Origin: an uncultured Gemmatimonadaceae bacterium
Lineage (GTDB): Bacteria; Gemmatimonadota; Gemmatimonadetes; Gemmatimonadales; Gemmatimonadaceae
Assembly: GCA_963817955.1 (NCBI GenBank)
Contig: CAWFQK010000002.1
Span: 704,001 to 768,000 of the forward strand
Length of the DNA: 64,000 nucleotides
Reading direction: 5' to 3'
Shown here: one piece after another, positions 35,261 through 61,335 of the stretch
Layout: each line of letters begins with the position of its first letter
Position numbering within the stretch: position 1 is the first letter of the stretch
Position numbers and translations under genes: made by a program
Notes under the pieces: model-generated
The model's input: only the letters and a program-made list of their open reading frames with translations
The model's database searches: none
Told to the model about the DNA's origin: nothing

Positions 35261-35650
35261 TGTCATCCTGAGCGAAGCTTGTCATCCTGAGCGAAGCGAA
35301 GGATCTCGGTGACCGACAGAACAGCTTTTGAACGCAGAGGTCGCAGAGAACTGCAAGAGAGAACTGCAGAGGACTGCAAAAGAGAACTGCAAAAGAAGAC
35401 TGGAAAAGGGAACTGCAAGAGAGAACTGCAAGCGTACGGAAGAGGGAAGCGCGTATCGGTGGAATGAACTGTGATTGCCGAGTCCACAATCATTCCGCCT
35501 ATATCGTTGATGATCCCGACCTGGGCGATACCATCGGAGCGTCACGGCATCATCCACGACTTCCTGGCGAGACAATCCTTCACGGTCCTCTGCAGTTCTC
35601 TCTTTGCAGTTCTCTGCGACCTCTGCGTTCAAAGGCTGTTCTGTCGGTCA
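35261..35650. mobile_element. palindromic GxxExxY-derived element, copy A (internally deleted)
   Basis: REP-like tgtcatcctgagcgaagc x2, arm aacgcagaggtcgcagagaactgc, gagaactgc repeats, leader plus ~20 GxxExxY codons on minus, inverted arm ending at 35650. Confidence 0.8.
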
Positions 35651-39135: not shown

Positions 39136-39198
39136 CTGGTGCTAATGGCCTTCGCGAAGGTTCGGTGACACGGGGGACACGGGTTACATGGGGGATGG

Positions 39199-39773
39199 GA
39201 CACGAGACACGCGAAGCGCTGTCATCCTGAGCGAAGCGAAGGATCTCTGGGAACGATAGACCAGCTTCTGAACGCAGAGGTCGCAGAGAACTGCAGGAGA
39301 ACTGCAAGAGAGAACTGCAAGAGAGAACTGCAAGAGCGAACTGCAAGAGCGAACTGCAAGAGCGAACTGCAAGAGAACTGGAAAAGGGAACGGCAAAGAC
39401 AACTGTAAGCGTACGGAGGACGGAAGCGCGTATCAGTGGAATGAACCGTGAATGCCAAGTCCACAATCATTCCGCCTGCAGCGTCAATGATCCCGACCTG
39501 GGCGATACCATCGGAGCGTCACGACGACATCAGCCCAGTCTTCCAGGCGAGACAATCCTTCGCAGTCCTCTGCAGTTCTCTTGCAGTTCTCTTCTCTGCG
39601 ACCTCTGCGTTCAAAAGCTGGTCTATCGTTCCCAGAGATCCTTCGCTTCGCTCAGGATGACAAGCTTCGCTCAGGATGACAAGCTTCGCTCTGGATGACA
39701 AGCTTCGCTCTGGATGACAGCGCTTCGCTCCGGATGACAGCGCTTCTCGTGTCTCGTGTCTCGTGTCTCGTGT
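39199..39773. mobile_element. palindromic GxxExxY-derived element, copy B (internally deleted)
   Basis: Nested inverted arms; about five 19-bp gcttcgctcaggatgacaa-like units and (ctcgtgt)n on the right; GxxExxY stub on minus at ~39438-39492. Confidence 0.8.
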
Positions 39774-40166
39774 TCAGGGCGGATCGCGAACGAACGCGCT
39801 GCTCTGATTCATTACCTGGGCGATTCTGAACTCGACGACCTGCCCGGGGTCAACGGTCAACCCGGACGTGACGGCGTTGCCGCGTCCACCGATGGGTGTC
39901 GCGACGATCACGACCTGCTGACCGTATACCAGCGACCAGGGCACCGAAAAACTGCCGGTCGAGTTTCCGTTGACCGAACCAAGCCGCCGCGACATGCTGC
40001 TCGCCACGAATGACAGATTCATGGCCAGAAAATTTTCGTTCTTTACATGCACGGTGATCGGTTCCGGGAGCGGCTCCTCATCCACACCCGGCTGATGCCG
40101 CGAACAGGCCGCAAGCGCCACGATCATGGCGATCGCCAACCGCCGAGGCGTGCGCCGCCGCATCAT
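39774..40166 (-). CDS. putative lipoprotein
   Basis: Lipobox LAAC; beta-rich mature part. Confidence 0.7.
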   Translation of the reverse strand: MMRRRTPRRLAIAMIVALAACSRHQPGVDEEPLPEPITVHVKNENFLAMNLSFVASSMSRRLGSVNGNSTGSFSVPWSLVYGQQVVIVATPIGGRGNAVTSGLTVDPGQVVEFRIAQVMNQSSAFVRDPP

Positions 40167-50356: not shown

Positions 50357-51940
50357 ATGACGGGGATGGGGGTGCTGGTGGAACAGGAAGGACGTGAAAT
50401 CGCAGGAGTATCTCGGGGTCAGAACGCGGTCTATGTGATGCCGCACGACTGGGCATCGATGTCCCAGTTCCTTTCTCCGTTGGTCGAACGAATCGACGAG
50501 CAGACGCACGCCGTGCAGCTCCTCGTGCTCACCCCCGACTCGGAGGTCGCCACCGCGGTGACGGCCGCCGCGGTGCGGCTCACCGAAGGACGCGACGTCG
50601 GCATTCTCGCCGCCACATCCACGCGACGTTCGGCGCGTCTGGTTCGGTTACGTCCGCCGCATGTCATTGCGGGTCCTGCTGACATCATTCTCGAGCTCGT
50701 CCGCGCCGCTGCCATCAAGCTCGACACGGTTCGCATGCTTTGCATTGCCTGGGCCGACGAGCTCATGACCCAGGCGACGCCGGAGTCGCTGGAAGCGCTG
50801 ATGACCGAGCTTCCGAAGGACGGAGCGCGCATCGTCGTCACGTCGGAGCTCACGCCGGCCGTCGAGGCCCTCATCGAGCGGTACGCACGCCGCGGCCGCC
50901 GAGTCGGGCTGCCGATCAGCGAAGCGGATCAGCCGACGCCCGTCGGCTACGTCACCGTGTCGCCACAATCGCGCCTGTCAGCGCTACGGCGTCTGCTCGA
51001 TGAAGTCGATCCTGCGTCGGCGCTGGTATTCGTGCGGGACAGCGTCAGTGCGTCGGAAGTCGGCAATCTGCTGCGCGCTTTGGGCTACAGTGGGAGCGAC
51101 GCGCCGATTCGAGTCGGGCTCACTGCCACGCCGGGCATGGACCTCGTCGTGCTGTTCGACCTGCCAGCGTCCCGCGAGGAACTCCGCGGAGCTGTCGGCG
51201 CTGCTCCGCGCAGCATTGCACTCATTCAGCCACGCCAATTGGCCAGTTTGCGAGCGCTGGCAGCTGGTGGAACCGTTTCCTCGTTCACGTTATCCGAATC
51301 GGGAACCCGGGTTCGGGAGCGCGAAGCTCGCATGCGCGCCGAACTGCGCGATGCGCTGGCGCAGGGACAGTACGGTCGCGAGCTCCTCGCGCTCGAGCCA
51401 TTGCTCGAGGAATACGACGGCATCGAGATCGCCGCCGCCGCGCTGCAGTTGCGCGATCGCGATCGCGCAACGCATGCCGCGGCCGCACAAAGCGCGGCGC
51501 CGGCTCCGCGCGAGCGGAGTACAGAGCGGAGCGCCGAACGGGGCAACGACCGTGATTCGGCCGGTATGGTGCGCCTGTTTGTGAGTGTGGGCTCCCGCGA
51601 CAATGTACGTCCGGGCGATCTTGTTGGCGCGATCGCGAATCAGGGCGGCGTAACGAGCGCTGAAGTCGGGAAGATCGACGTGCGCGAATCGCACTCGATC
51701 GTCGAAGTCGCGTCGAGTGTCGCCGATTCAGTGATCGAGCGGGTCACGGGCGTTTCGATCAAAGGCCGGCGCGCGGTACTCCGCCGCGACGAGGAGCGCC
51801 CGCCGCGCTCCGGACCGTCCCGCAGTAGCGATCGCGCCGGCGGCGCTCGGCCGCGAGGCGCACGATCGGATTCGACTCGCGAGTCGCGCCCGAGAAGTGG
51901 ACCGCCCCGGGGCCGGCCGCGGCGCGGAGATGGCGAGTGA
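50357..51940 (+). CDS. degenerate DEAD-box helicase-like protein with DbpA-type RNA-binding domain
   Basis: LVLTP and [14 protein letters not shown] in place of the DEAD motif; [23 protein letters not shown]...VGKID; Arg-rich tail. Confidence 0.75.
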
Positions 51941-52557
51941 TCTCCGACGGCTACTTCTCGGGAGGAGCCGCTGGTTGGATCGAGGTGATCTGCGGCGTGA
52001 TGTTCAGCGGCAAGAGCGAAGAGCTCATTCGCCGCGTACGCCGCGCGATCATCGCGAAGAGAAAAGTGCAAGTGTTCAAGTCCCATCTCGACGAGCGGTA
52101 CGCCGGTATCTATCACATCTCCAGCCACGATGGGCGCTCGGTGGAGGCGGTGCCAATCGACACACCTGAGCAGATCGGACAGCTCATCGAGTCCGACACG
52201 CAGGTGGTGGCGATTGACGAGGCGCAATTCCTCGACGCCACGATCGTAGATCTGGTGACGTCGCTCGCGAACCGAGGTGTCCGCGTCATCGTCGCCGGCA
52301 CGGACAATGACTTTCGCGGGGAGCCATTCGGCCCCATGCCACAGCTCCTCGCTATCGCGGAGGTCGTAGACAAGCTCCATGCGATTTGCGTGATCTGTGG
52401 CAATCCGGCCAGCCGCAACCAGCGCCTCATTGCCGGGAAACCGGCACGGTACGATTCGCCGACCATCATGGTGGGCAGCACCGAGTCATACGAAGCCCGG
52501 TGTCGCGCCTGCCATTCGGTGCCGCGACGCGACGAAGACCAGGTCCGGCTGCTCTGA
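51937..52557 (+). CDS. tdk: thymidine kinase
   Basis: [30 protein letters not shown]...YEARCRAC. Confidence 0.95.
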
Positions 52558-52590
52558 CACGAGACACGGGATGCCCGTCGCCCCGAGCGA

Positions 52591-53052
52591 TGTCTGTCAT
52601 CCTGAGCGAAGCGTGTCATCCTGCGCGAAGCCTGTCATCCTGAGCGAAGCGAAGGATCTCTGCGACCAAAAGAACAGCATTTACCACAGAGCGGCCCAAC
52701 AGCTTTTAACGCAGAGGTCGCAGAGAACTGCAGAGAACCGCAGAGGACCGTGAAGGATTGTCTCGCCTGGAAGTCTTGGATGATGCCGTCGTGATGCTCC
52801 GATGGTATCGCCCAGGTCGGGATCATTTAACGATATGGCGGAATGATTGTGGACTCTGCAATCACGGTTCATTCCACCAATACGAGCTTCCCTCTTCCGT
52901 ACGCTTGCAGTTCTCTATTGCAGTTCTCTTCTGCAGTTCTCTTGCAGTTCTCCTGCAGTTCTCTGCGACCTCTGCGTTCAAAAGCTGTTCTGCCGGCCAC
53001 AGAGATCCTTCGCTTCGCTCAGGATGACAGGCTTCGCGCAGGATGACAGACA
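52591..53052. mobile_element. palindromic GxxExxY-derived element, copy C (deleted; opposite orientation)
   Basis: Three REP-like units left, two right; stub atgattgtggactctgcaatcacggttcattcc on plus; ~25-nt insertion in the left arm. Confidence 0.8.
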
Positions 53053-53106
53053 CCTCGTGTCTCGTATCGCAGGCCGGTGACCGCTACGGAGCAGTTGTAA
53101 CAGGCG

Positions 53107-55059
53107 TCAGGAATTGGGCGTCAGACTCCGATACAACTGCCGTACGTTGAAACGAACCGGATCCAGCTCGTAGTAGCGATTGTCCTGGAAGCGGCCCGTC
53201 GTCGGGAAGTACGGCGGTGGATTCACCACCGCGCACCGATCGTAGCTGTATCGCTTGACGTAGCCGGTGCCTGTCGACGTGCCCACTGCGCCTCGCGTAT
53301 TCTGAATGAGCCCGCCAGTCAGGTACAGGCAGCCACGCCCGTCGGTCGAGCCCTGGCACCCGATTGCGTTCGTCGGACCGGTGCTGTAACCCTGCACGCC
53401 GAACGAAGTCCCGAGCGCCATGATGACCGCGTGGATGTACATGTCCGGGGTGTCGTCCAGGCTACGGACGATCTGGGGACTGCTGGTCTTCACGTATTGC
53501 GGCGAATTCAGGTCGTTGTCAGCGACGACCGTGTTCGCCCCCGATATGAGCCCCAGAATGTCCACGCATACTCCACGCGACGGATCGTTCGCGTACCGCA
53601 AGTCGTCGAGAATGACGATGGTATTCGGCGAGTACAGCGTGACGTCGCCGCGCAACACACCACTCACACCCACCGTACCGGCCACGTACATCACACCTTT
53701 GGTACTGGTGTTGTACCCCCGATAGAGCGGATAGAGATATTTGGCGTCCCACGTTCGGGCCGCCGCGACCGTGCCGTTCGGCGTATTCGAATAGAGACGC
53801 CACGATCCGAGCGAATCGGCGGGCGTAAACGTGGTGTCGGTGCCTCCGATGTGCATCTGGGCGGCCGTGTAGCCGTGTCCCGCATCGCGCATCACCGCCG
53901 CAAGATGTGGATCGCCGCCAAGGTAGCAGCGCGCGCCGGAATGCTGCATGATGGTCGTCACGCTCGAGGCGCCTTCGGTATGTGCGGCCGAGATGTTTGC
54001 CGTGGTCGCTCCCCCAGCCATGCCGCGTGCAGTCACTGTGTCGAACCAGCGCTGTGTGTGCACGGCGCCCGGGAAGAACTTCGACACACCCGTCGCATCG
54101 TTGTGCCAGTCGCCGCAGTTGAGCAATTGCGCGGATGTCGGCAGGGATGAGGCACTACCAGGCCAGTCCGCACGCAGCCAGGCGGTCTTGTTCGCGTTCG
54201 CCGTATACACCCGGAAGAATCCTTCGTTCGTGCCGAGCGAGTCGCCATTGAGATCGATGTCCGCCGCCACGAACTCGATGCGCGTGCGGACGGTGGTTTC
54301 GTCTCCGGTGGTCGGTGCCGTGAAGCTCATGCCTCCGGTGGCCGCCAGCGCACTGAGGCCGCTGAGCGACGACAGCGACGGCAGCGTGATCGCCCGCTGA
54401 TGCGTCTGAAAGCCGCGGCTGAAGCTACCGTACTGCGACCCCGTGATCGTTCCGGCCGTGCCGACCTGATCATGAAATGTCGCACCGCTCGACAGAATGT
54501 CGATGTCGTCGTTCGACCAGACCGGCCCCCACAATTGGTCTCCCCCACCGAACGAGATGTTCGTGCCCTCGCTGTTCGTCCAGTACGCGAACTTGGCGAA
54601 GCTCTCCTGCGTCAATTCGAGGCGCCTCACGAAGCCGGTCCCATTGGCATCGCGCGCCTCGGCAACGATGCTGGCGAAGCGCCCGAATTGGCCGCTCGTC
54701 GACCCGGTGGGACCCACGTAGAGATTCACCGTGATACCCTTGAGCGCCTGATAGTCGGCCGACACCAGGGTCTTTTGCGTCATCAGCGCCACGTAGCTCG
54801 TATTTGGCAGCGTCGCGGGATTGAAGTTGAGCTCCGCCTTGCCGATGGCGAGCGCCGCTTCGGACGTGTACTTGAGATCATCTTCTTTCTCGTATGCCTT
54901 GCCGAGAAGCGTGGCATTCGCGGTGAGAAAGATCGCCGACAGGGCGAGCGCACCGACGCCGGCCACAAAGAATATTGCAACGAAGAGCGCAATGCCGCGG
55001 CGCGCACGCGCCGCCCCAGCGGCGCCGAATGTGTGGCGCCGACAACGTGTAGTAGTCAT
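53107..55059 (-). CDS. large PilX-like minor pilin/adhesin
   Basis: RRG|IALFVAIFF class III signal without E5; long C-terminal domain ending YSYDR...PPYFP. Confidence 0.7.
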   Translation of the reverse strand: MTTTRCRRHTFGAAGAARARRGIALFVAIFFVAGVGALALSAIFLTANATLLGKAYEKEDDLKYTSEAALAIGKAELNFNPATLPNTSYVALMTQKTLVSADYQALKGITVNLYVGPTGSTSGQFGRFASIVAEARDANGTGFVRRLELTQESFAKFAYWTNSEGTNISFGGGDQLWGPVWSNDDIDILSSGATFHDQVGTAGTITGSQYGSFSRGFQTHQRAITLPSLSSLSGLSALAATGGMSFTAPTTGDETTVRTRIEFVAADIDLNGDSLGTNEGFFRVYTANANKTAWLRADWPGSASSLPTSAQLLNCGDWHNDATGVSKFFPGAVHTQRWFDTVTARGMAGGATTANISAAHTEGASSVTTIMQHSGARCYLGGDPHLAAVMRDAGHGYTAAQMHIGGTDTTFTPADSLGSWRLYSNTPNGTVAAARTWDAKYLYPLYRGYNTSTKGVMYVAGTVGVSGVLRGDVTLYSPNTIVILDDLRYANDPSRGVCVDILGLISGANTVVADNDLNSPQYVKTSSPQIVRSLDDTPDMYIHAVIMALGTSFGVQGYSTGPTNAIGCQGSTDGRGCLYLTGGLIQNTRGAVGTSTGTGYVKRYSYDRCAVVNPPPYFPTTGRFQDNRYYELDPVRFNVRQLYRSLTPNS

Positions 55060-55067
55060 GTTGGTCC

Positions 55068-56237
55068 TCACGGAATGGAGACCGATGATGTGTTGCCGAC
55101 CGGTGAGCTTGCGGGCGTGCAATCCTGCGCCGCCACGCCGTATACCCACACCTGCCCGCTCGTCACATCGGTGTCCTGGAACGAATACGTGGCTGAGCCG
55201 GCAGGCACGCTGGCGAACGGTTGGTCGAACGAAGCCACGCTCTGCAGGCGACGGTAGATCGCGTACCGTTCCACGTCCTTTTCCCCTGCACCGTCGTCCA
55301 CACTCGCGGTCCACGAAATCGTGACGAACGTCTGCGGCACGCTACTGCCGTTGGCCGCCGTGACGGTTGCGGCGGGTGTGACGCCAATTGGCGCTGCACC
55401 ACATGTGGTATGGTGAATGAGACCGGCGTTCATCAGCCGGATCGTCGTCTGCATTCGGCGATAGGTATCGCTGTTCGTGCGCTTGTCATGATACACGCTC
55501 GTGAACTGCACCTTCACCTGACGAATGCTGTCGACGAGCGCAGCTCGGCCCGTATCCGCCTGGGCGCCGTGAATGGGCGCCGAGTGCACGAGCGGCAGCA
55601 GCGATGACGGGATAGCGGTGAGCGCGCCCGTAGTGTCGCTCTTGAAGTACTGGAAGATCGTATCGCCTGTGTTGTAGATGATGCCGCGCGCCACGACCTT
55701 CGCCGGACGCGCGTTCAACCGGCGGAACAGGATGTACTCGTTGCTCCGCGAACTCGTGGAATCGTGTGACAGCCAGTACGAGATCGTCTCGGCATTGCTC
55801 GGTACGCCGACGTTCTGCAGGTAGGTGGTATCGGGGTACTGTCTCGCCATGCCGGGCAGTGTGATCTTGTTCGAGGTGCGCATCACGCTCACGCCGGCGG
55901 AGTCGGCATCGGGATTGATGTAGACGGCGCCAAGATCGCCCGTGTCGAGCGCCACGAGGTCCGCGTTGAACGTCAACGCCACCGCACCCGCTTGAACGAG
56001 CAGGGGCTGGACGTCGGCCACGCCCACACCGGCCACGCGCAGCTCGCGGTCGAGCATCGACAGCGCAAACCGGGAATTCGACTGTGCGTCGAGCCGTCCC
56101 GCCTGCGTAGAAACGGAACTGGACTGTTTCTGAAAGAGCTGCACGCTCAGGCCGACGAGCGTGAGCATCAAGGACATGGCGAGCACCATTTCGGCCAGGG
56201 TGAAGCCGCGGCGCACGCGAAGCGAGGATGGCTGCAC
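55068..56237 (-). CDS. PilW-like prepilin with C-terminal FN3-like domain
   Basis: RRG|FTLAEM; RELRVAG; ISWTAS...YAIYR...YGVAAQD. Confidence 0.75.
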   Translation of the reverse strand: MQPSSLRVRRGFTLAEMVLAMSLMLTLVGLSVQLFQKQSSSVSTQAGRLDAQSNSRFALSMLDRELRVAGVGVADVQPLLVQAGAVALTFNADLVALDTGDLGAVYINPDADSAGVSVMRTSNKITLPGMARQYPDTTYLQNVGVPSNAETISYWLSHDSTSSRSNEYILFRRLNARPAKVVARGIIYNTGDTIFQYFKSDTTGALTAIPSSLLPLVHSAPIHGAQADTGRAALVDSIRQVKVQFTSVYHDKRTNSDTYRRMQTTIRLMNAGLIHHTTCGAAPIGVTPAATVTAANGSSVPQTFVTISWTASVDDGAGEKDVERYAIYRRLQSVASFDQPFASVPAGSATYSFQDTDVTSGQVWVYGVAAQDCTPASSPVGNTSSVSIP

Positions 56238-56247
56238 GAGGTCTCCG

Positions 56248-56637
56248 TCAGTAGGGTGCGATGACGGTGGTCTTTCGCACGGGCCCCGCCAATTGACTGT
56301 TCGTGACCTGCACGGTGACGATCTTGTAGTCAATCGTGTCGGTGACTTGCCCTCCGACGTGTGTCACCCATGTCTGGCGCGAATAGTGGGGGTATCCGGT
56401 CAGCGTCGCCTCGGTGGCCACGTACAGGCTTTCGATTGCCGAATAGCGCGGCGACGCTTTCACGACCTCGAGCCGTTCTGCCGTGAGCTGCGCTGCCGTG
56501 ACGCGCATGCGCGACGATGTGGTCTGCTGCGACAATCGCACGGAGAACAGGCCCAGGCCGAGCATCACACTGCCGAGGATCGATAGCGCGACAATGACTT
56601 CGACGAGTGTCAAACCGCTGCGCGCGGCGCGCATCAT
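56248..56637 (-). CDS. PilV-like prepilin
   Basis: RSG|LTLVEVIVAL. Confidence 0.8.
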   Translation of the reverse strand: MMRAARSGLTLVEVIVALSILGSVMLGLGLFSVRLSQQTTSSRMRVTAAQLTAERLEVVKASPRYSAIESLYVATEATLTGYPHYSRQTWVTHVGGQVTDTIDYKIVTVQVTNSQLAGPVRKTTVIAPY

Positions 56638-57233
56638 TGATTGGCGAGAACCCATTGTCCGGTGCCTGCGTTGAGGCGGTACCAGTCGACGCGCCCCGTC
56701 GCCTGCGTCAGCGTGATGGCGCGATACCAGGGCGGCCCGTGGGCCGCCACCTTGATGTAGATCTCGGCGTCAGAACTCGCCGATCCGTCGCGGTGGAACG
56801 TGACCGTGGGATAGCCGTTCAGCGTGGCGATAGCAGATCCGGTCACCGGAAGGTGGATCGCCGTGCCCGAGACGCCGTGAACCGCTGGATCGGTGAAGAG
56901 AATGCCGACATCCAGCCCTCGCCACGTCAGGTGCTCGGTGGTCGTGGGGAGTCCATCGTTGTTCGCGTCCCAGAACGTACGAATTCGTTCGCCCGTCGTG
57001 TCGAAGCTCACGACCATGTCGTGCTGGCGCGTGATCGCCTGGCGCTGGGCGTACTGCAGTGTGGTACGCACGATCTGCGCGACGGCGTCTGCCCTATACT
57101 TCGTCGTGTCGATGCGCGGAATGGCCAGCGCCAGCGTGATGCCGGTAATGACCAATACGGTCATCGTTTCGATGAGCGTGAATGCGGATCGTGCTGTTCG
57201 GCCGTCGTTTGGGTGCGTGACGATCTGTCTCAT
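56634..57233 (-). CDS. FimT/GspH-like prepilin
   Basis: RSA|FTLIETMTVL; LQYAQRQAI; VTFHRDG. Confidence 0.8.
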   Translation of the reverse strand: MRQIVTHPNDGRTARSAFTLIETMTVLVITGITLALAIPRIDTTKYRADAVAQIVRTTLQYAQRQAITRQHDMVVSFDTTGERIRTFWDANNDGLPTTTEHLTWRGLDVGILFTDPAVHGVSGTAIHLPVTGSAIATLNGYPTVTFHRDGSASSDAEIYIKVAAHGPPWYRAITLTQATGRVDWYRLNAGTGQWVLANQ

Positions 57234-57428
57234 GACGAATTCCAGTAAGCGCTCACATCCAGGACGACAGGATTGCCTGAGAGGCTATCCGGGCCTGTGA
57301 TGGAGATCGTCATGACAGCGGCATGAATCGTCATATTCTGTGGCCTCTCGCCTTGCAAGTAATGCCCGTTTGGGCCTAACCTCTCTTTCACGTATCGCCA
57401 CGCTCCGTCTTTTCGCCGGGCAACTGAC

Positions 57429-58250
57429 ATGGGTGTAATCGCCACGCTGCTCCCGAACGCGACACAATTGCAGCGCCTCCGAACCGCCATTCGCGACCGC
57501 CATCAGTTGGTGGCGTGCGATGACTGGGCAGAACTGCTGCAAGTGTGCGAACGACAACCGGTTCGACTCGCCGTGGTCGACCTATTCGCCGGTGGCAATG
57601 CGAGCTTCGAACGTGTGCGCCACATGAAGCAGCGTCTGCCCCGGCTCACGCTGATTGCGTACGTCACCTTTACGGCAGATCGCGCGCACGAATTGTTCGA
57701 TGCGGGACGCCAGGGAATGGACGGGCTGATCATCGCCGATCAGGACGATGCACCACGCGCGCTGCTCGCCCTCGTCGAGCACGCCGAGTCCAAGAGCCTT
57801 GGCGCGGTTGTCCGGCAATCGCTCGATGACGTCGAACCGACGATTCGCGATGCGGTGCTGCTCGCGGTCACTCGTGCGCATGAGCGTCTATCACCCGAGG
57901 GCCTGGCGCGCCTCCTGGCCCTGCCCCGCCGAACCGTCTCACAACGGCTCTCCGCGGCCGGATACCCGCCGCCACAGCGACTGCTCACGTGGGGTCGATT
58001 GATCGTCGCGGCACATCTCCTCGAAGACCGCCACCGCAGCGCCGACCGCATCGCGCTCGCGCTCGAATTTCCCTCGGGGAGCGCCTTTCGTAACACCTGC
58101 CAGCGGTACCTGCACGCGACACCCCACGACATTCGCGCGCGTGGCGGCGCGGCGTACGTCATCCGCAGTCTGCTCCGGCAAGTCGGTCCCGCCGAGCGAG
58201 CGCATCCCAGCGGGCGCCCCGGAAAACGCACGCTGGCCCTCGCTGTCTGA
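57429..58250 (+). CDS. receiver-like + AraC-like HTH regulator
   Basis: RLAVVD N-domain; LARLLALPRRTVSQRL and IALALEFPSGSAFRN. Confidence 0.7.
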   Translation: MGVIATLLPNATQLQRLRTAIRDRHQLVACDDWAELLQVCERQPVRLAVVDLFAGGNASFERVRHMKQRLPRLTLIAYVTFTADRAHELFDAGRQGMDGLIIADQDDAPRALLALVEHAESKSLGAVVRQSLDDVEPTIRDAVLLAVTRAHERLSPEGLARLLALPRRTVSQRLSAAGYPPPQRLLTWGRLIVAAHLLEDRHRSADRIALALEFPSGSAFRNTCQRYLHATPHDIRARGGAAYVIRSLLRQVGPAERAHPSGRPGKRTLALAV

Positions 58251-58325
58251 CCCAGTTCGTTCCTCCCGCGGCCACCGACATCGGTTACCGCGCGCGTGCT
58301 TCACCTTCTCCCGAGGTCCAATATC

Positions 58326-58886
58326 ATGATGCGACGCCGCTTCACTCCCCTCGCTATACTGCTGTTCATCGGCGCGTGCAGCCTGTCCGATTCCACGGCG
58401 CCGGCGCGTGCAACCGGCACGGCGAATCGGGCGATCAGCGGAGACGACGAACACGATGGCCGTGTGATCCCCGGCTCGATTGGCAAGGCCGGCAGCGCGT
58501 CTGCCAACGGCCAGGACCAGCGTCTCGCCTGCAACGTCCCGGCTCAGCTTTCCGGGTCGGCGATCGTCGGGCCTTCCGGCGGCGAGCTGGACATCGGACC
58601 ACACCGGCTCATCATTCCCCCTGGAGCATTGACGCGGGACACTTTGATTTCCGGCACCGTGCCCCAAGGAGCCAGCATCGAGATCCACCTGGAACCACAC
58701 GGCCTGCGTTTCAACAAGCCGGCTGGGCTCATTCTCGACGTATCGAGCTGCGGCAAGGTGCCGGACATCATCTACATCGATGAGCAGGGCACCATCTCAC
58801 AGCGGATTCGCGCCGTATTCAGCACCTGGTGGCATACAATTGCTGCGCCCATTGACCACTTCTCCATTTACGCGCTGGACGTCTGA
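58326..58886 (+). CDS. putative lipoprotein (ZU5-like)
   Basis: Lipobox IGAC; VGPSGGEL, LIIPPGAL, LEPHGLRFNKP, IDHFSIYA. Confidence 0.7.
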   Translation: MMRRRFTPLAILLFIGACSLSDSTAPARATGTANRAISGDDEHDGRVIPGSIGKAGSASANGQDQRLACNVPAQLSGSAIVGPSGGELDIGPHRLIIPPGALTRDTLISGTVPQGASIEIHLEPHGLRFNKPAGLILDVSSCGKVPDIIYIDEQGTISQRIRAVFSTWWHTIAAPIDHFSIYALDV

Positions 58887-58901
58887 CATTTCAGCGCGGC
58901 G

Positions 58902-59885
58902 ATGAGCGGAATCGACGCGATAAAGACTGGAGAGGCATCAGAGCTCGCGGGCGAATTTCTCGATGCCTCTGCAGCGTATCAATCGGCGCTCACCGACGCC
59001 GATCCACTCGTCGTCGCCGATGCACGCTTTCACCTCGGGCGGGTCAGCTGGCGCCAGGGCCGATACGACGAAGCGGTGACGCACTATGACGCCGCGCGCA
59101 TCGTCACCATGCAGTTGGGCGCGAACAACCTTCGCGCGCGTGTGGAGAACGGACTCGGGGTGGTCCACCACGCGCGCGGTGCGTATGCGCAGGCACGCGC
59201 CAGCTACGCGGTAGCGCTGGACATGACCAGCGACCCGGTACAGCGCGGACGCGTCATGCTCAACCTGGGCGCCATCGCCAACATTGAAGGCGACCTCGAG
59301 AGCGCGCGGCTTCACTACGCGAGGAGTCGCGCGCTCTTTCAAGAGTCCGGATACCGCCGCGGGGAGGCACTTGCCCTGCACAATATCGGTATGCTGCACG
59401 CCGACCAGCAGTCGTGGGACGAAGCCGAAGAAGCCTATCGCCGCTGCCTCGAGCTGCTCGAGCAGGAGGGCGACCGGCAAATGATCGCCAACGTGCTGCT
59501 CAACCGCTCGGAGGTGAGCTGTGCACGAACGCGGTACGACGAGGCGATCGCAAACTGCGATCTCGCGCTATCGATCTACTCCGAGATCGGCGATGAGGTG
59601 GGCCGCGGCGAGGCGCTCCGATGGAAGGGCCATGCGCTTTGGCACCTACCGCGGTTCGAAGAGGCCGACCGAGCGATATCCGATGCCATCCGGATCGCGC
59701 ATCGGACGCAGGTCAAGCTGCTCGAAGCGGAAGCGTCCCGCGACCTCGGCGCCAGCCGCGCGGCGCAACGGAATTGGTCGGGTGCCCGCAAGGCGCTCAC
59801 GCGCGCGCTGGTACTGTTCGAGGAGCTCGGCGCGCAGCGCGAAGTCGCGGACGTGCGGGCCGAGTTGGGGCAGCTTGGCTCCTGA
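58902..59885 (+). CDS. TPR-repeat protein
   Basis: Repeated NLG/NIG ... EA..Y..AL units. Confidence 0.85.
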   Translation: MSGIDAIKTGEASELAGEFLDASAAYQSALTDADPLVVADARFHLGRVSWRQGRYDEAVTHYDAARIVTMQLGANNLRARVENGLGVVHHARGAYAQARASYAVALDMTSDPVQRGRVMLNLGAIANIEGDLESARLHYARSRALFQESGYRRGEALALHNIGMLHADQQSWDEAEEAYRRCLELLEQEGDRQMIANVLLNRSEVSCARTRYDEAIANCDLALSIYSEIGDEVGRGEALRWKGHALWHLPRFEEADRAISDAIRIAHRTQVKLLEAEASRDLGASRAAQRNWSGARKALTRALVLFEELGAQREVADVRAELGQLGS

Positions 59886-60591
59886 GAGAAGCGAAGGATC
59901 TCGATGAACGGCGCAACAGCTTTTGAACGCAGAGGTCGCAGAGAACTGCAGGAGAACTGCAGAGAACTGAAAAAGAGAGCTGAAGGGGGAAGTGTGGGGG
60001 GGCGCTAGAGGCGATTCGCCACGCGGATGATCCCATCTTTCAGTTGCGCAACGTGGAAGTTGATCAACAGGCCAACCTGCCGATTGCTCAGTTTGAGTTG
60101 GGACAGCAATTGGGCTTTGTGGACCAGCAGGATCTTCGCGGCCGCCTTGACCTCGACGATGACACATTCCTCGACCAGCAGATCTATCCGATAGGCCAGG
60201 TCGAGTTCCACGCCGTCGTACACGAGGGGCATGGGAACCTCGCTGCGAACGTTCAGCCCGCGTTTCCGTAGCTCGTGCGCGAGGCAGACGTGGTATGCGC
60301 GCTCCAGCAACCCGGGGCCCAGCGCGGAATGAACCTTGATTGCCGAGTCCACAATCATTCCGCTCACCTCGTTGATGGTCACGACACGAGCGATACCATC
60401 CGAGCGTCACGAGAGCGTCATCCAAGAATTCCAGGCGATACAATCCTTCACGGTCCTTTGCAGTTCTCTGCAGTTCTCCTGCAGTTCTCTGCGACCTCTG
60501 CGTTAAAAAGCTGTCGCGCCGTTCATCGAGATCCTTCGCTCCGCTCAGGATGACAGGCCTCGGAGATCCTTCGCTTCGCTCAGGATGACAG
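59880..60591. mobile_element. complete palindromic element, copy D, with ~90-bp inverted arms enclosing GxxExxY
   Basis: 59880-59969 is a near-perfect reverse complement of 60461-60550; extra REP half at 60563-60591. Confidence 0.8.
60005..60382 (-). CDS. GxxExxY protein (PD-(D/E)XK nuclease superfamily)
   Basis: LGPGLLERAY; YRIDLLVEECVIVEVKA; GLLINF. Confidence 0.93.
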   Translation of the reverse strand: MTINEVSGMIVDSAIKVHSALGPGLLERAYHVCLAHELRKRGLNVRSEVPMPLVYDGVELDLAYRIDLLVEECVIVEVKAAAKILLVHKAQLLSQLKLSNRQVGLLINFHVAQLKDGIIRVANRL

Positions 60592-60669
60592 GCATCATGT
60601 GTCCCGTGTCGCCCTGCGGAGCATGCCCTCGAGCTTGTGACTCCTGTCCAGCACTATTTCAACAGGCTG

Positions 60670-61335
60670 CTAACCGCGCGTCGTATACGCCAGGGTGAGG
60701 AATTCCTCTCGCGTACGCGGATCGGAGCGGAAGAGGCCCCGTAGCGCGCTCGTGATGGTCTTGGAGCTCTGCTTCTCCACGCCGCGCATCATCATGCACA
60801 GGTGGTAGGCCTCGATCACCACGCCCACACCCATGGGGTTGAGCACGTCCTGGATTGCCGTGGCGACCTGCTCGGTGAGTCGCTCCTGCACCTGAAGTCG
60901 CCGGGCGAACACTTCGATCAGCCGCGGAATCTTGCTCAGGCCGACGATCTTGCCGTTCGGGATGTAGGCAATGTGCGCGCGGCCGTAAAATGGCAGCATG
61001 TGGTGCTCGCAGAGGCTGTACAGCTCAATGTCGCGCACCATGACCATGTTGCTCGCGCCATCCGCGTCGAACAGCGCTCCATCGACGATATGAGCGACGT
61101 CCATCTCGTAGCCCCGCGTGAGCCACGCCAGCGACGTCGCGACACGGTCTGGCGTGCGCAACAACCCCTCGCGGTCGGGATCCTCGCCAAGTAGCTCGAG
61201 CTGGCGCCGCACCAGATCGCGAAACTCGTGGTTCGAGGACCCACTCTCAATGAACTCCTCGGGGGAAGCGGTCACGGAATCTCCGGTGAGGGGCATTGAA
61301 TCTTGCATGGTTTCTCGAGGGACGTGGCTGCTCAT
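60670..61335 (-). CDS. folE: GTP cyclohydrolase I
   Basis: [46 protein letters not shown]. Confidence 0.96.

Follow-up and report, generated by a model that had tools for sequence, protein, structure and literature searches.

A hairpin-bounded DNA family with dispersed gene-less derivatives and a candidate GxxExxY nuclease driver in an uncultured Gemmatimonadaceae bacterium

The DNA considered here is a 64,000-nt stretch of the genome of an uncultured soil bacterium of the Gemmatimonadaceae (below, the window; G000:C2:704001-768000, within G000, a 4.53-Mb assembly of 9 contigs that is 94% complete), and our subject is an element in it, copy D, that lies between a TPR-like gene and folE and consists of two inverted arms, a leader and a single small open reading frame (ORF) of the GxxExxY family. 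The ORF matches PF13366 (PDDEXK_3) at 8.8e-38 (129.7 bits, cut-off 22) and the NCBIfam profile TIGR04256 (GxxExxY) at 2.7e-39 (134.1 bits, cut-off 35), and both its GxxExxY motif and its predicted catalytic residues, D67, E77 and K79, are intact. The window has three further copies, A, B and C, which share with copy D the arms, the leader and 19 codons from the start of the ORF; each of them breaks after GTTCATTCC and then continues into the same filler, with C inverted relative to A, B and D. The original prediction had described this arrangement, one intact element and three deleted copies, and it is borne out by the sequence. Mobile DNA with non-autonomous derivatives is a well-supported description of the family.

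A BLAST search of copy D against the genome returned 102 clusters, the longest of which is 717 nt; copy D-type arms therefore flank no other gene in G000, and no complete gene other than GxxExxY lies within any of the clusters. One second full copy, 87% identical to copy D, is present at G000:C2:315558-316243, a pattern search found the intact configuration in 2 instances genome-wide, and a profile search found exactly 2 PF13366 genes, each within a full element. The junction seen in copies A, B and C, which we call type 1, gave 43 pattern matches with at most 3 mismatches, far more than chance would produce, 42 of them true copies and 1 spurious, and a different junction, type 2, is present in 10 copies by our own reading of 49 pattern matches. 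The family thus has about 54 members in the genome, and the window holds 4 of them. Much as in families of miniature inverted-repeat transposable elements (MITEs), the 42 and 10 deleted copies share both ends with the gene-carrying element and hold only remnants of its ORF, the copies are many and dispersed, and at the sites of copies C and D the orthologous places in relatives lack the element. On our own crude gene map (87% coding), every one of the 53 oriented copies is intergenic: 22 are flanked by convergent, 27 by tandem and 4 by divergent genes; those between tandem genes are without orientation bias (12 co-oriented, 15 anti-oriented), and, when orientation is set against GC skew, the ORF strand is the G-rich strand in 28/53 copies. 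Along the genome the copies are clustered, with 20 gaps of less than 20 kb where 11.4 were expected (P ~0.001).

In the type-1 deletion, codon 19 is fused with the 3' tail through two TTCC microhomologies; the type-2 deletion, which is independent of it, brings the leader (..GACGCTCGGA) up to the final ~15 codons. The type-1 filler is homologous to a TTCCACC..RCGCG..CTCTT stretch 3' of the stop codon in type-2 copies, so what looked like filler is the untranslated 3' tail inherited from a full-length ancestor, and, because it corresponds to the stretch after the type-2 stop codon, both deleted lineages derive from a full-length ancestor other than copy D. Among the 38 complete type-1 cores the mean pairwise distance is 9.9% (range 0.6-16.9%) and the mean distance to the consensus 5.7%, and conservation is even along the core, at 0.93-0.96. 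These star-like distances, taken with the even conservation, imply a burst followed by neutral decay, and the shared junctions, the star-like tree and the empty orthologous sites described next imply that the deleted copies spread after the deletion, in a MITE-like manner. The expectation that one deletion arose once and that the deleted form then multiplied is in this way upheld by 42 copies with one junction and now also by 10 with a second, and is backed further by the tree, by the intergenic placement of all 53 oriented copies and by the empty sites.

Our comparison set comprised 41 genomes including G000, 24 of them from the same genus, and a search for the leader and inner arms found them in G000 and in none of the 40 related genomes. 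At the site of copy D, the distance from the TPR-like gene to folE is 784 nt here versus 12, ~1 and ~50 nt in all three syntenic relatives, these being the three that keep the pair of genes among 30 searched, and at the site of copy C the spacer is 549 nt here versus 0-99 nt in 14/14 syntenic relatives. The comparison of filled and empty orthologous sites that the original prediction had called for therefore finds empty sites at both places, an outcome in favor of that prediction. One relative (G002) has the outer-repeat hairpin alone at the orthologous C site, without the inner element. In public reads the stretch is present in only two DNA runs (shares 0.08 and 0.07) and in no listed RNA run, and the organism is represented there solely by contigs of ~150-240 nt, none of them bridging an element. 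At the joints in 52656-53002 different letters stand between one side and the other, and we take these for outer-repeat hairpins from other places rather than for empty alleles.

The gene 51937-52557, beside copy C, and folE, beside copy D, are direct convergent neighbors, 8-581 nt apart, in 13 related species, while a block of several kb separates them in 14 other species and here, where the block (window 52558-60669) is bounded by the inverted copies C and D. A composite transposon, with C and D as the inverted ends of 53053-59879, is ruled out, as relatives keep the TPR-like gene beside folE, and likewise the gene pair at the site of copy C, without the elements.

The GxxExxY protein belongs to a very large family of small proteins, present across many bacterial phyla and in some archaea, with at least 7994 sequences retrieved at E <= 1e-5 for PF13366 / TIGR04256; among the matches listed, the closest named homologs are from Gemmatimonadaceae assemblies. 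One source lists the function of this family as unknown (PMC3424549). Residues G24, E27, Y30, D67, E77 and K79 are invariant across 38 aligned homologs. If translation began at the internal ATG at 60358, which has a GAGGTGA Shine-Dalgarno-like stretch, the product would be 117 aa long. The predicted model (pLDDT, the predicted local distance difference test, 92) has a minimal PD-(D/E)XK fold, and in a model-based fold comparison it comes nearest, at Z 7-8.5, to the solved structures of restriction-endonuclease-like proteins, Cas4 and Hjc, matches that would indicate a nuclease fold and no more; a sequence search of the PDB with the protein gave no match below E = 1. The two intact genes differ at 22/378 bases, 16 of these at third codon positions, and the resulting ratio of nonsynonymous to synonymous substitution rates (dN/dS 0.088, with dS 0.21) shows purifying selection. 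The leaders of the two full copies are ~85% identical, which is near the neutral rate given by that dS.

Beyond this genome, we collected 80 GxxExxY loci from named genomes of Gemmatimonadota, Acidobacteriota, Chloroflexota, Bacteroidota, Planctomycetota, Cyanobacteria, Pseudomonadota, Desulfobacterota, Verrucomicrobiota, Synergistota and Methanosarcinales, 71 of these loci having enough flank. Inverted repeats hug the gene in 60/71. The arms have a common motif, C[GA]C[AG][GA]AG (CRCRRAG), usually after a T-rich ..ACC or ..AAC. Upstream of the gene its density per 150 nt is 2.37 on the sense strand versus 0.44 on the antisense strand, and downstream the picture is mirrored, with 2.20 as the reverse complement versus 0.47. 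At least two motif copies stand in both arms at 46/70 loci, and the polarity is reversed at 3/70; the 5' arm of copy D has the polarity of those 46 loci from other phyla. The abundance of the arms also follows the gene, again in favor of the original prediction: doublets of the CAGAG-type motif are enriched in 16/29 genomes with PF13366 versus 1/12 without, counts that are not independent because the genomes are related. An independent replicate is the GxxExxY cassette L016 of another species (G011): its arms are different, the G011 genome holds at least 9 gene-less pairs of them, and of the four other genomes tested two, G017 and G009, had no match to them. For an enzyme and its sites one would expect just such a lasting association of gene and end motif over hosts as varied as those listed above. 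Archaeal and cyanobacterial assemblies (L140 and L163, Methanosarcinales; L148, L154 and L167, Nostocales) encode GxxExxY proteins with 54-59% identity to that of the window, with the same arm motif around the gene, which points to transfer of whole cassettes between domains.

The ends of copy D are themselves composite (Table 1). Read on the ORF strand from the outside inwards, the 5' arm consists of an outer repeat, ~12 variable nt, a box, AACAGCTTTTTAAC, and then GCAGAGG / GCAGAGAACT repeats, and the TPR-like gene upstream takes its TGA stop codon (59883-59885) from the outer end of the 3' arm. Folded as single-stranded DNA, copy A forms one long hairpin (-110.7 kcal/mol, z -12). Mismatches between arms are 19 of G:U type, 29 of A:C type and 56 other, with no RNA-type (G:U) bias. 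The ~18 variable nt of a copy's two arms co-vary weakly (own-arm score 14.84 versus 14.07 for others, P ~0.03), the own arm being the best partner in 9/45 copies, and at one orthologous locus followed through six species the arms differ between species and match within species in four of the five that keep both. We found no Rfam match for the window at gathering scores and none at E <= 1 for 59800-60700, and a consensus scan found no promoter or terminator in 59700-60800.

Table 1. Positions of the hairpin-bounded copies and associated repeats in the window, and of the PF05635 cassettes elsewhere in G000.
Feature	Position	Strand	Description
Copy D, full-length element	59880..60596	-	Arm, leader, GxxExxY ORF, arm and second outer repeat unit
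3' arm of copy D	59880..59976	-	Reverse complement of the 5' arm
GxxExxY ORF	60005..60382	-	125 aa, GTG start
Leader between 5' arm and ORF	60383..60453	-	Retained in type-1 and partly in type-2 copies
5' arm of copy D (relative to ORF)	60454..60550	-	Inverted repeat I1, 97 nt, 94% complementary
Second tandem unit of outer repeat	60563..60596	.	GAGATCCTTCGCTTCGCTCAGGATGAC..; direct repeat D1
Further repeat module between copy D and folE	60597..60672	.	..GCATGCCCTCGAGCTTGTGACTCCTGTCCAGCACTATTTCAACAGGCTGCTA; its final 3 bases form the stop codon of folE
Copy A, type-1 deletion derivative	35261..35650	-	Junction 35460/35461
Copy B, type-1 deletion derivative	39199..39773	-	Junction 39437/39438; outer repeats in tandem at either side
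Copy C, type-1 deletion derivative	52591..53052	+	Inverted versus A, B and D; junction 52875/52876
Outer repeat in the window	35261-35300, 39219-39250, 39636-39740, 52596-52660, 60528-60596		
PF05635 cassettes L069-L073	G000:C4:1054669, C4:1553199, C1:472315, C2:824631, C4:1616850		

The outer repeat (..GTCATCCTGAGCGAAGCGAAGGATCT..) forms a separate family of small palindromic elements, 80-110-nt hairpins with variable loops, and its 30-nt unit occurs alone, as short hairpins, in 19/40 related genomes. The ~75-nt module beyond it, ending ..TTTCAACAGTCTGTTA, has nine further places in the genome, and its true copies all adjoin the 3' end of family members. An inverted partner of this module (TAACAGACTGTTGAACTACGAG..) lies on the opposite flank, frequently in overlap with the neighboring gene's stop codon; the module may be another nested element with TA-type ends. 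Heptamer arrays, CACGGGA / CACGAGA, also flank the elements (39170-39215, 39745-39775, 52556-52575, 53050-53075 and 60600-60615), mostly in inverted orientation, with a direct orientation at G000:C8:63080-63609. Outside the window, at G000:C8:4700-6260, a type-1 copy is split by an IS3-family insertion sequence of ~1.45 kb. It shows a pair of overlapping frames with an A-run and a DDE region of rve type; its ends read TGTATTGG.. / ..CAATACA and are unrelated to those of the family, and a GGG duplication of 3 bp accompanies it.

How might gene-less copies have come to occupy so many sites? Two internal deletions, each arising once in a full-length copy, would have been followed by the copying of each deleted form to new intergenic sites, giving the 42 and 10 copies seen today, and since deleted copies reached new sites, their propagation would have been in trans and would have needed the ends only. 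Most likely, the GxxExxY nuclease recognizes its own arms, in which, going inwards from the outer end at either side, a T-rich box precedes phased CRCRRAG repeats, and introduces a nick or cut at them, whereupon host replication or repair would make a new copy without target duplication. Copy D is one of two intact members of a hairpin-bounded DNA family whose sole gene encodes a small PD-(D/E)XK nuclease; that this nuclease drives its own selfish family, with derivatives spreading in trans, is the best single reading, which we put at roughly even chances. The wider proposal, that GxxExxY proteins are the end-recognizing nucleases of a superfamily of hairpin-bounded mobile elements without target duplication, is a tentative one that we hold at a little short of even confidence. 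We infer both that the GxxExxY protein, rather than something else, does the moving and how it may do so; the naming of this protein as the candidate mobilizer in the original prediction gains from the linkage of the gene to a cognate motif, and the PF05635 cassettes and genome G036, discussed below, count against it.

Several observations tell against a self-mobilizing nuclease, and we set them out here together with the explanations that they favor. Enzymes of the PD-(D/E)XK type act as hydrolytic nucleases, and strand transfer by them is not known. The outer repeat, which is unrelated to the core, stands on the 5' side of 33/45 copies and on the 3' side of 15/45, and part of the family's spread could have been by riding on it. 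The family is also not young, except for one pair of copies at 0.6% distance.

The explanation that survives best among the rivals, although we consider it unlikely, is that the phased-repeat hairpins are moved by host replication or repair or by another enzyme, with GxxExxY and four-helix-bundle (PF05635) genes as loop cargo, perhaps for addiction, defense or processing, so that the deleted copies spread because the arms spread. G000 has 5 PF05635 genes, 4 of them between inverted arms of 48-167 nt that are built of other tandem units than the GxxExxY arms; these units are also seen as gene-less repeats beside several GxxExxY-derived copies. Inverted heptamer arms are present at 9/12 PF05635 loci among relatives, and PF05635 itself is present in 39/41 genomes, including 7/8 of family f3, in which PF13366 was found in 0/8. 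For one f3 cassette there are many gene-less arm copies in three f3 genomes (a second arm test, in G027, gave few), and hairpins of this build can therefore multiply without GxxExxY. Genome G036 is a similar case, with 52 CAGAGG doublets versus 3 in the control and ACAGAGG arrays at ~35 dispersed places and no PF13366 match, the assembly, of 340 contigs, being 90% complete; these arrays could be relics after gene loss, arrays whose gene falls in an assembly gap, or arrays that spread without the gene. The 3' end of gene 51937-52557 carries different repeat-rich inserts in several species, a further point in favor of this reading. Target duplication, which the original prediction had suggested looking for, was not found beyond chance at 59 cross-phylum loci (mean 0.64 versus 0.87 for shuffled flanks), and in G000 the flanks are nested repeats whose ends are not cleanly readable and a palindromic TA/TTAA duplication would hide in the inverted repeat. 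What argues against mere cargo is that the arm motif and its polarity accompany GxxExxY across phyla and are missing around PF05635 genes (0-1 CRCRRAG copies at the 17 loci checked), and a motif common to cyanobacteria and Methanosarcinales is hard to explain by machinery that the host supplies. The arms in G000, moreover, flank only GxxExxY or its remnants, and the enrichment of the motif from genome to genome follows PF13366.

Other drivers within G000 can be narrowed down. PF01797, the profile of RAYT (a Y1 HUH transposase), had 0 matches in the genome, and a control search found the family in 6/14 known genomes, which rules out RAYT or IS200 as the driver. The original prediction had seen no transposase, integrase or RAYT in the window; its RAYT part holds and extends to the whole genome, and the other transposase families were not all scanned. 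It had also asked whether the arms co-occur with GxxExxY or with RAYT, and the genome counts given above answer for PF13366, with PF01797 being absent from G000.

A second explanation, which we think improbable, is that the central part (gene or deleted core) does not transpose and was copied by recombination into pre-existing arm hairpins, in a homing-like manner, with the arms as the homology and possibly with the nuclease providing the trigger by cutting empty hairpins. The closest pair of copies, which weighs against our main explanation, is what this would lead one to expect: it is a mosaic, with a core of ~215 nt with 2 differences, arms ~10% apart and unrelated outer flanks, and recombination between copies therefore also shapes the family. 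A possible model is TnpB, which one account describes as a nuclease maintaining its element by cutting vacant sites (PMC10690162). Against this explanation, a search for box halves within 60 nt found no core-less arm hairpin of the family type in G000. The arm family is in none of the 40 relatives, so insertion sites also had to be created, and 9/45 copies lie in flanks without any other repeat.

Finally, the notion that these are REP-like structural or regulatory hairpins (for RNA processing, mRNA stability or termination) kept by selection, with coding remnants that are incidental, could appeal to the 3'-end bias (22 convergent versus 4 divergent placements), to the great stability of the hairpins and to the arms that match within but not between species at one locus, but we regard it as very improbable given the even decay along a core with no conserved part, the arm mismatches without G:U bias, the unbiased orientation relative to neighboring genes (12 versus 15), the empty orthologous sites of a family found in this species only among those searched, and the lack of an Rfam match or a terminator-like site.

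If GxxExxY genes do drive their own elements, as we propose, then a class of small "hypothetical" genes would be explained together with the repeats that surround them, a nuclease fold not hitherto known to power transposition by itself would join the list of those that do, and annotators could identify thousands of intergenic hairpins as the debris of such elements. G000 would in that case supply the genetic proof, in two gene-less deletion derivatives copied in trans to 42 and 10 sites, and with two intact genes under selection and two marked deletion lineages it offers a good test bed. If the gene is instead cargo, the question becomes what copies phased-repeat hairpins in bacteria. We found no description of GxxExxY cassettes as mobile in the literature searched, with subscription journals outside its scope.

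The family can be placed among known systems, each of which it resembles in part. REP/REPIN elements have a RAYT (Y1 HUH) transposase and, like the present family, are palindromic intergenic repeats in tens of copies with one or two genes flanked by the same repeats. Here there is no Y1 transposase gene, and hence no RAYT gene flanked by repeats in G000, the enzyme has a different fold, and the gene-less copies keep coding remnants, which REPINs do not. The original prediction had likened the spread of the deleted copies to that of MITEs and REPINs; the likeness to MITEs stands and that to REPINs is one of analogy only, because no RAYT gene is present. IS200/IS605 elements are set apart by the same absence of PF01797 matches and by an ORF strand that falls on the G-rich strand in only about half of the copies. 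In Coxiella burnetii, the 23S rRNA's intervening sequence (IVS), with S23p, is described as a selfish insert with a small ORF in the loop of a long inverted-repeat stem (PMC4990558), a build shared by copy D and also by the 5 PF05635 cassettes of G000. Copy D differs in lying between protein-coding genes and not in helix 25 or 45 of 23S rRNA (the window has no rRNA match), in an ORF of PF13366 and not PF05635, in its own arm motif and in its amplified deletion derivatives. TnsA of Tn7 is a PD-(D/E)XK-type endonuclease that cuts the transposon ends and in that respect offers a model of a restriction-enzyme-fold nuclease acting at the ends of an element, although TnsA works with the DDE transposase TnsB for joining and the present element encodes no such partner. 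MITEs, which derive from insertion sequences by internal deletion (Correia-type or IS630-derived elements, for example), have parents with DDE, HUH or serine/tyrosine recombinases, whereas the parent gene here encodes a 125-aa PD-(D/E)XK nuclease, no target duplication was found and the ends are ~100-nt arms of phased short repeats rather than simple terminal repeats. The family has in common with MITEs short gene-less copies that share both ends with a gene-carrying parent, one deletion junction common to many dispersed intergenic copies, and a star-like tree.

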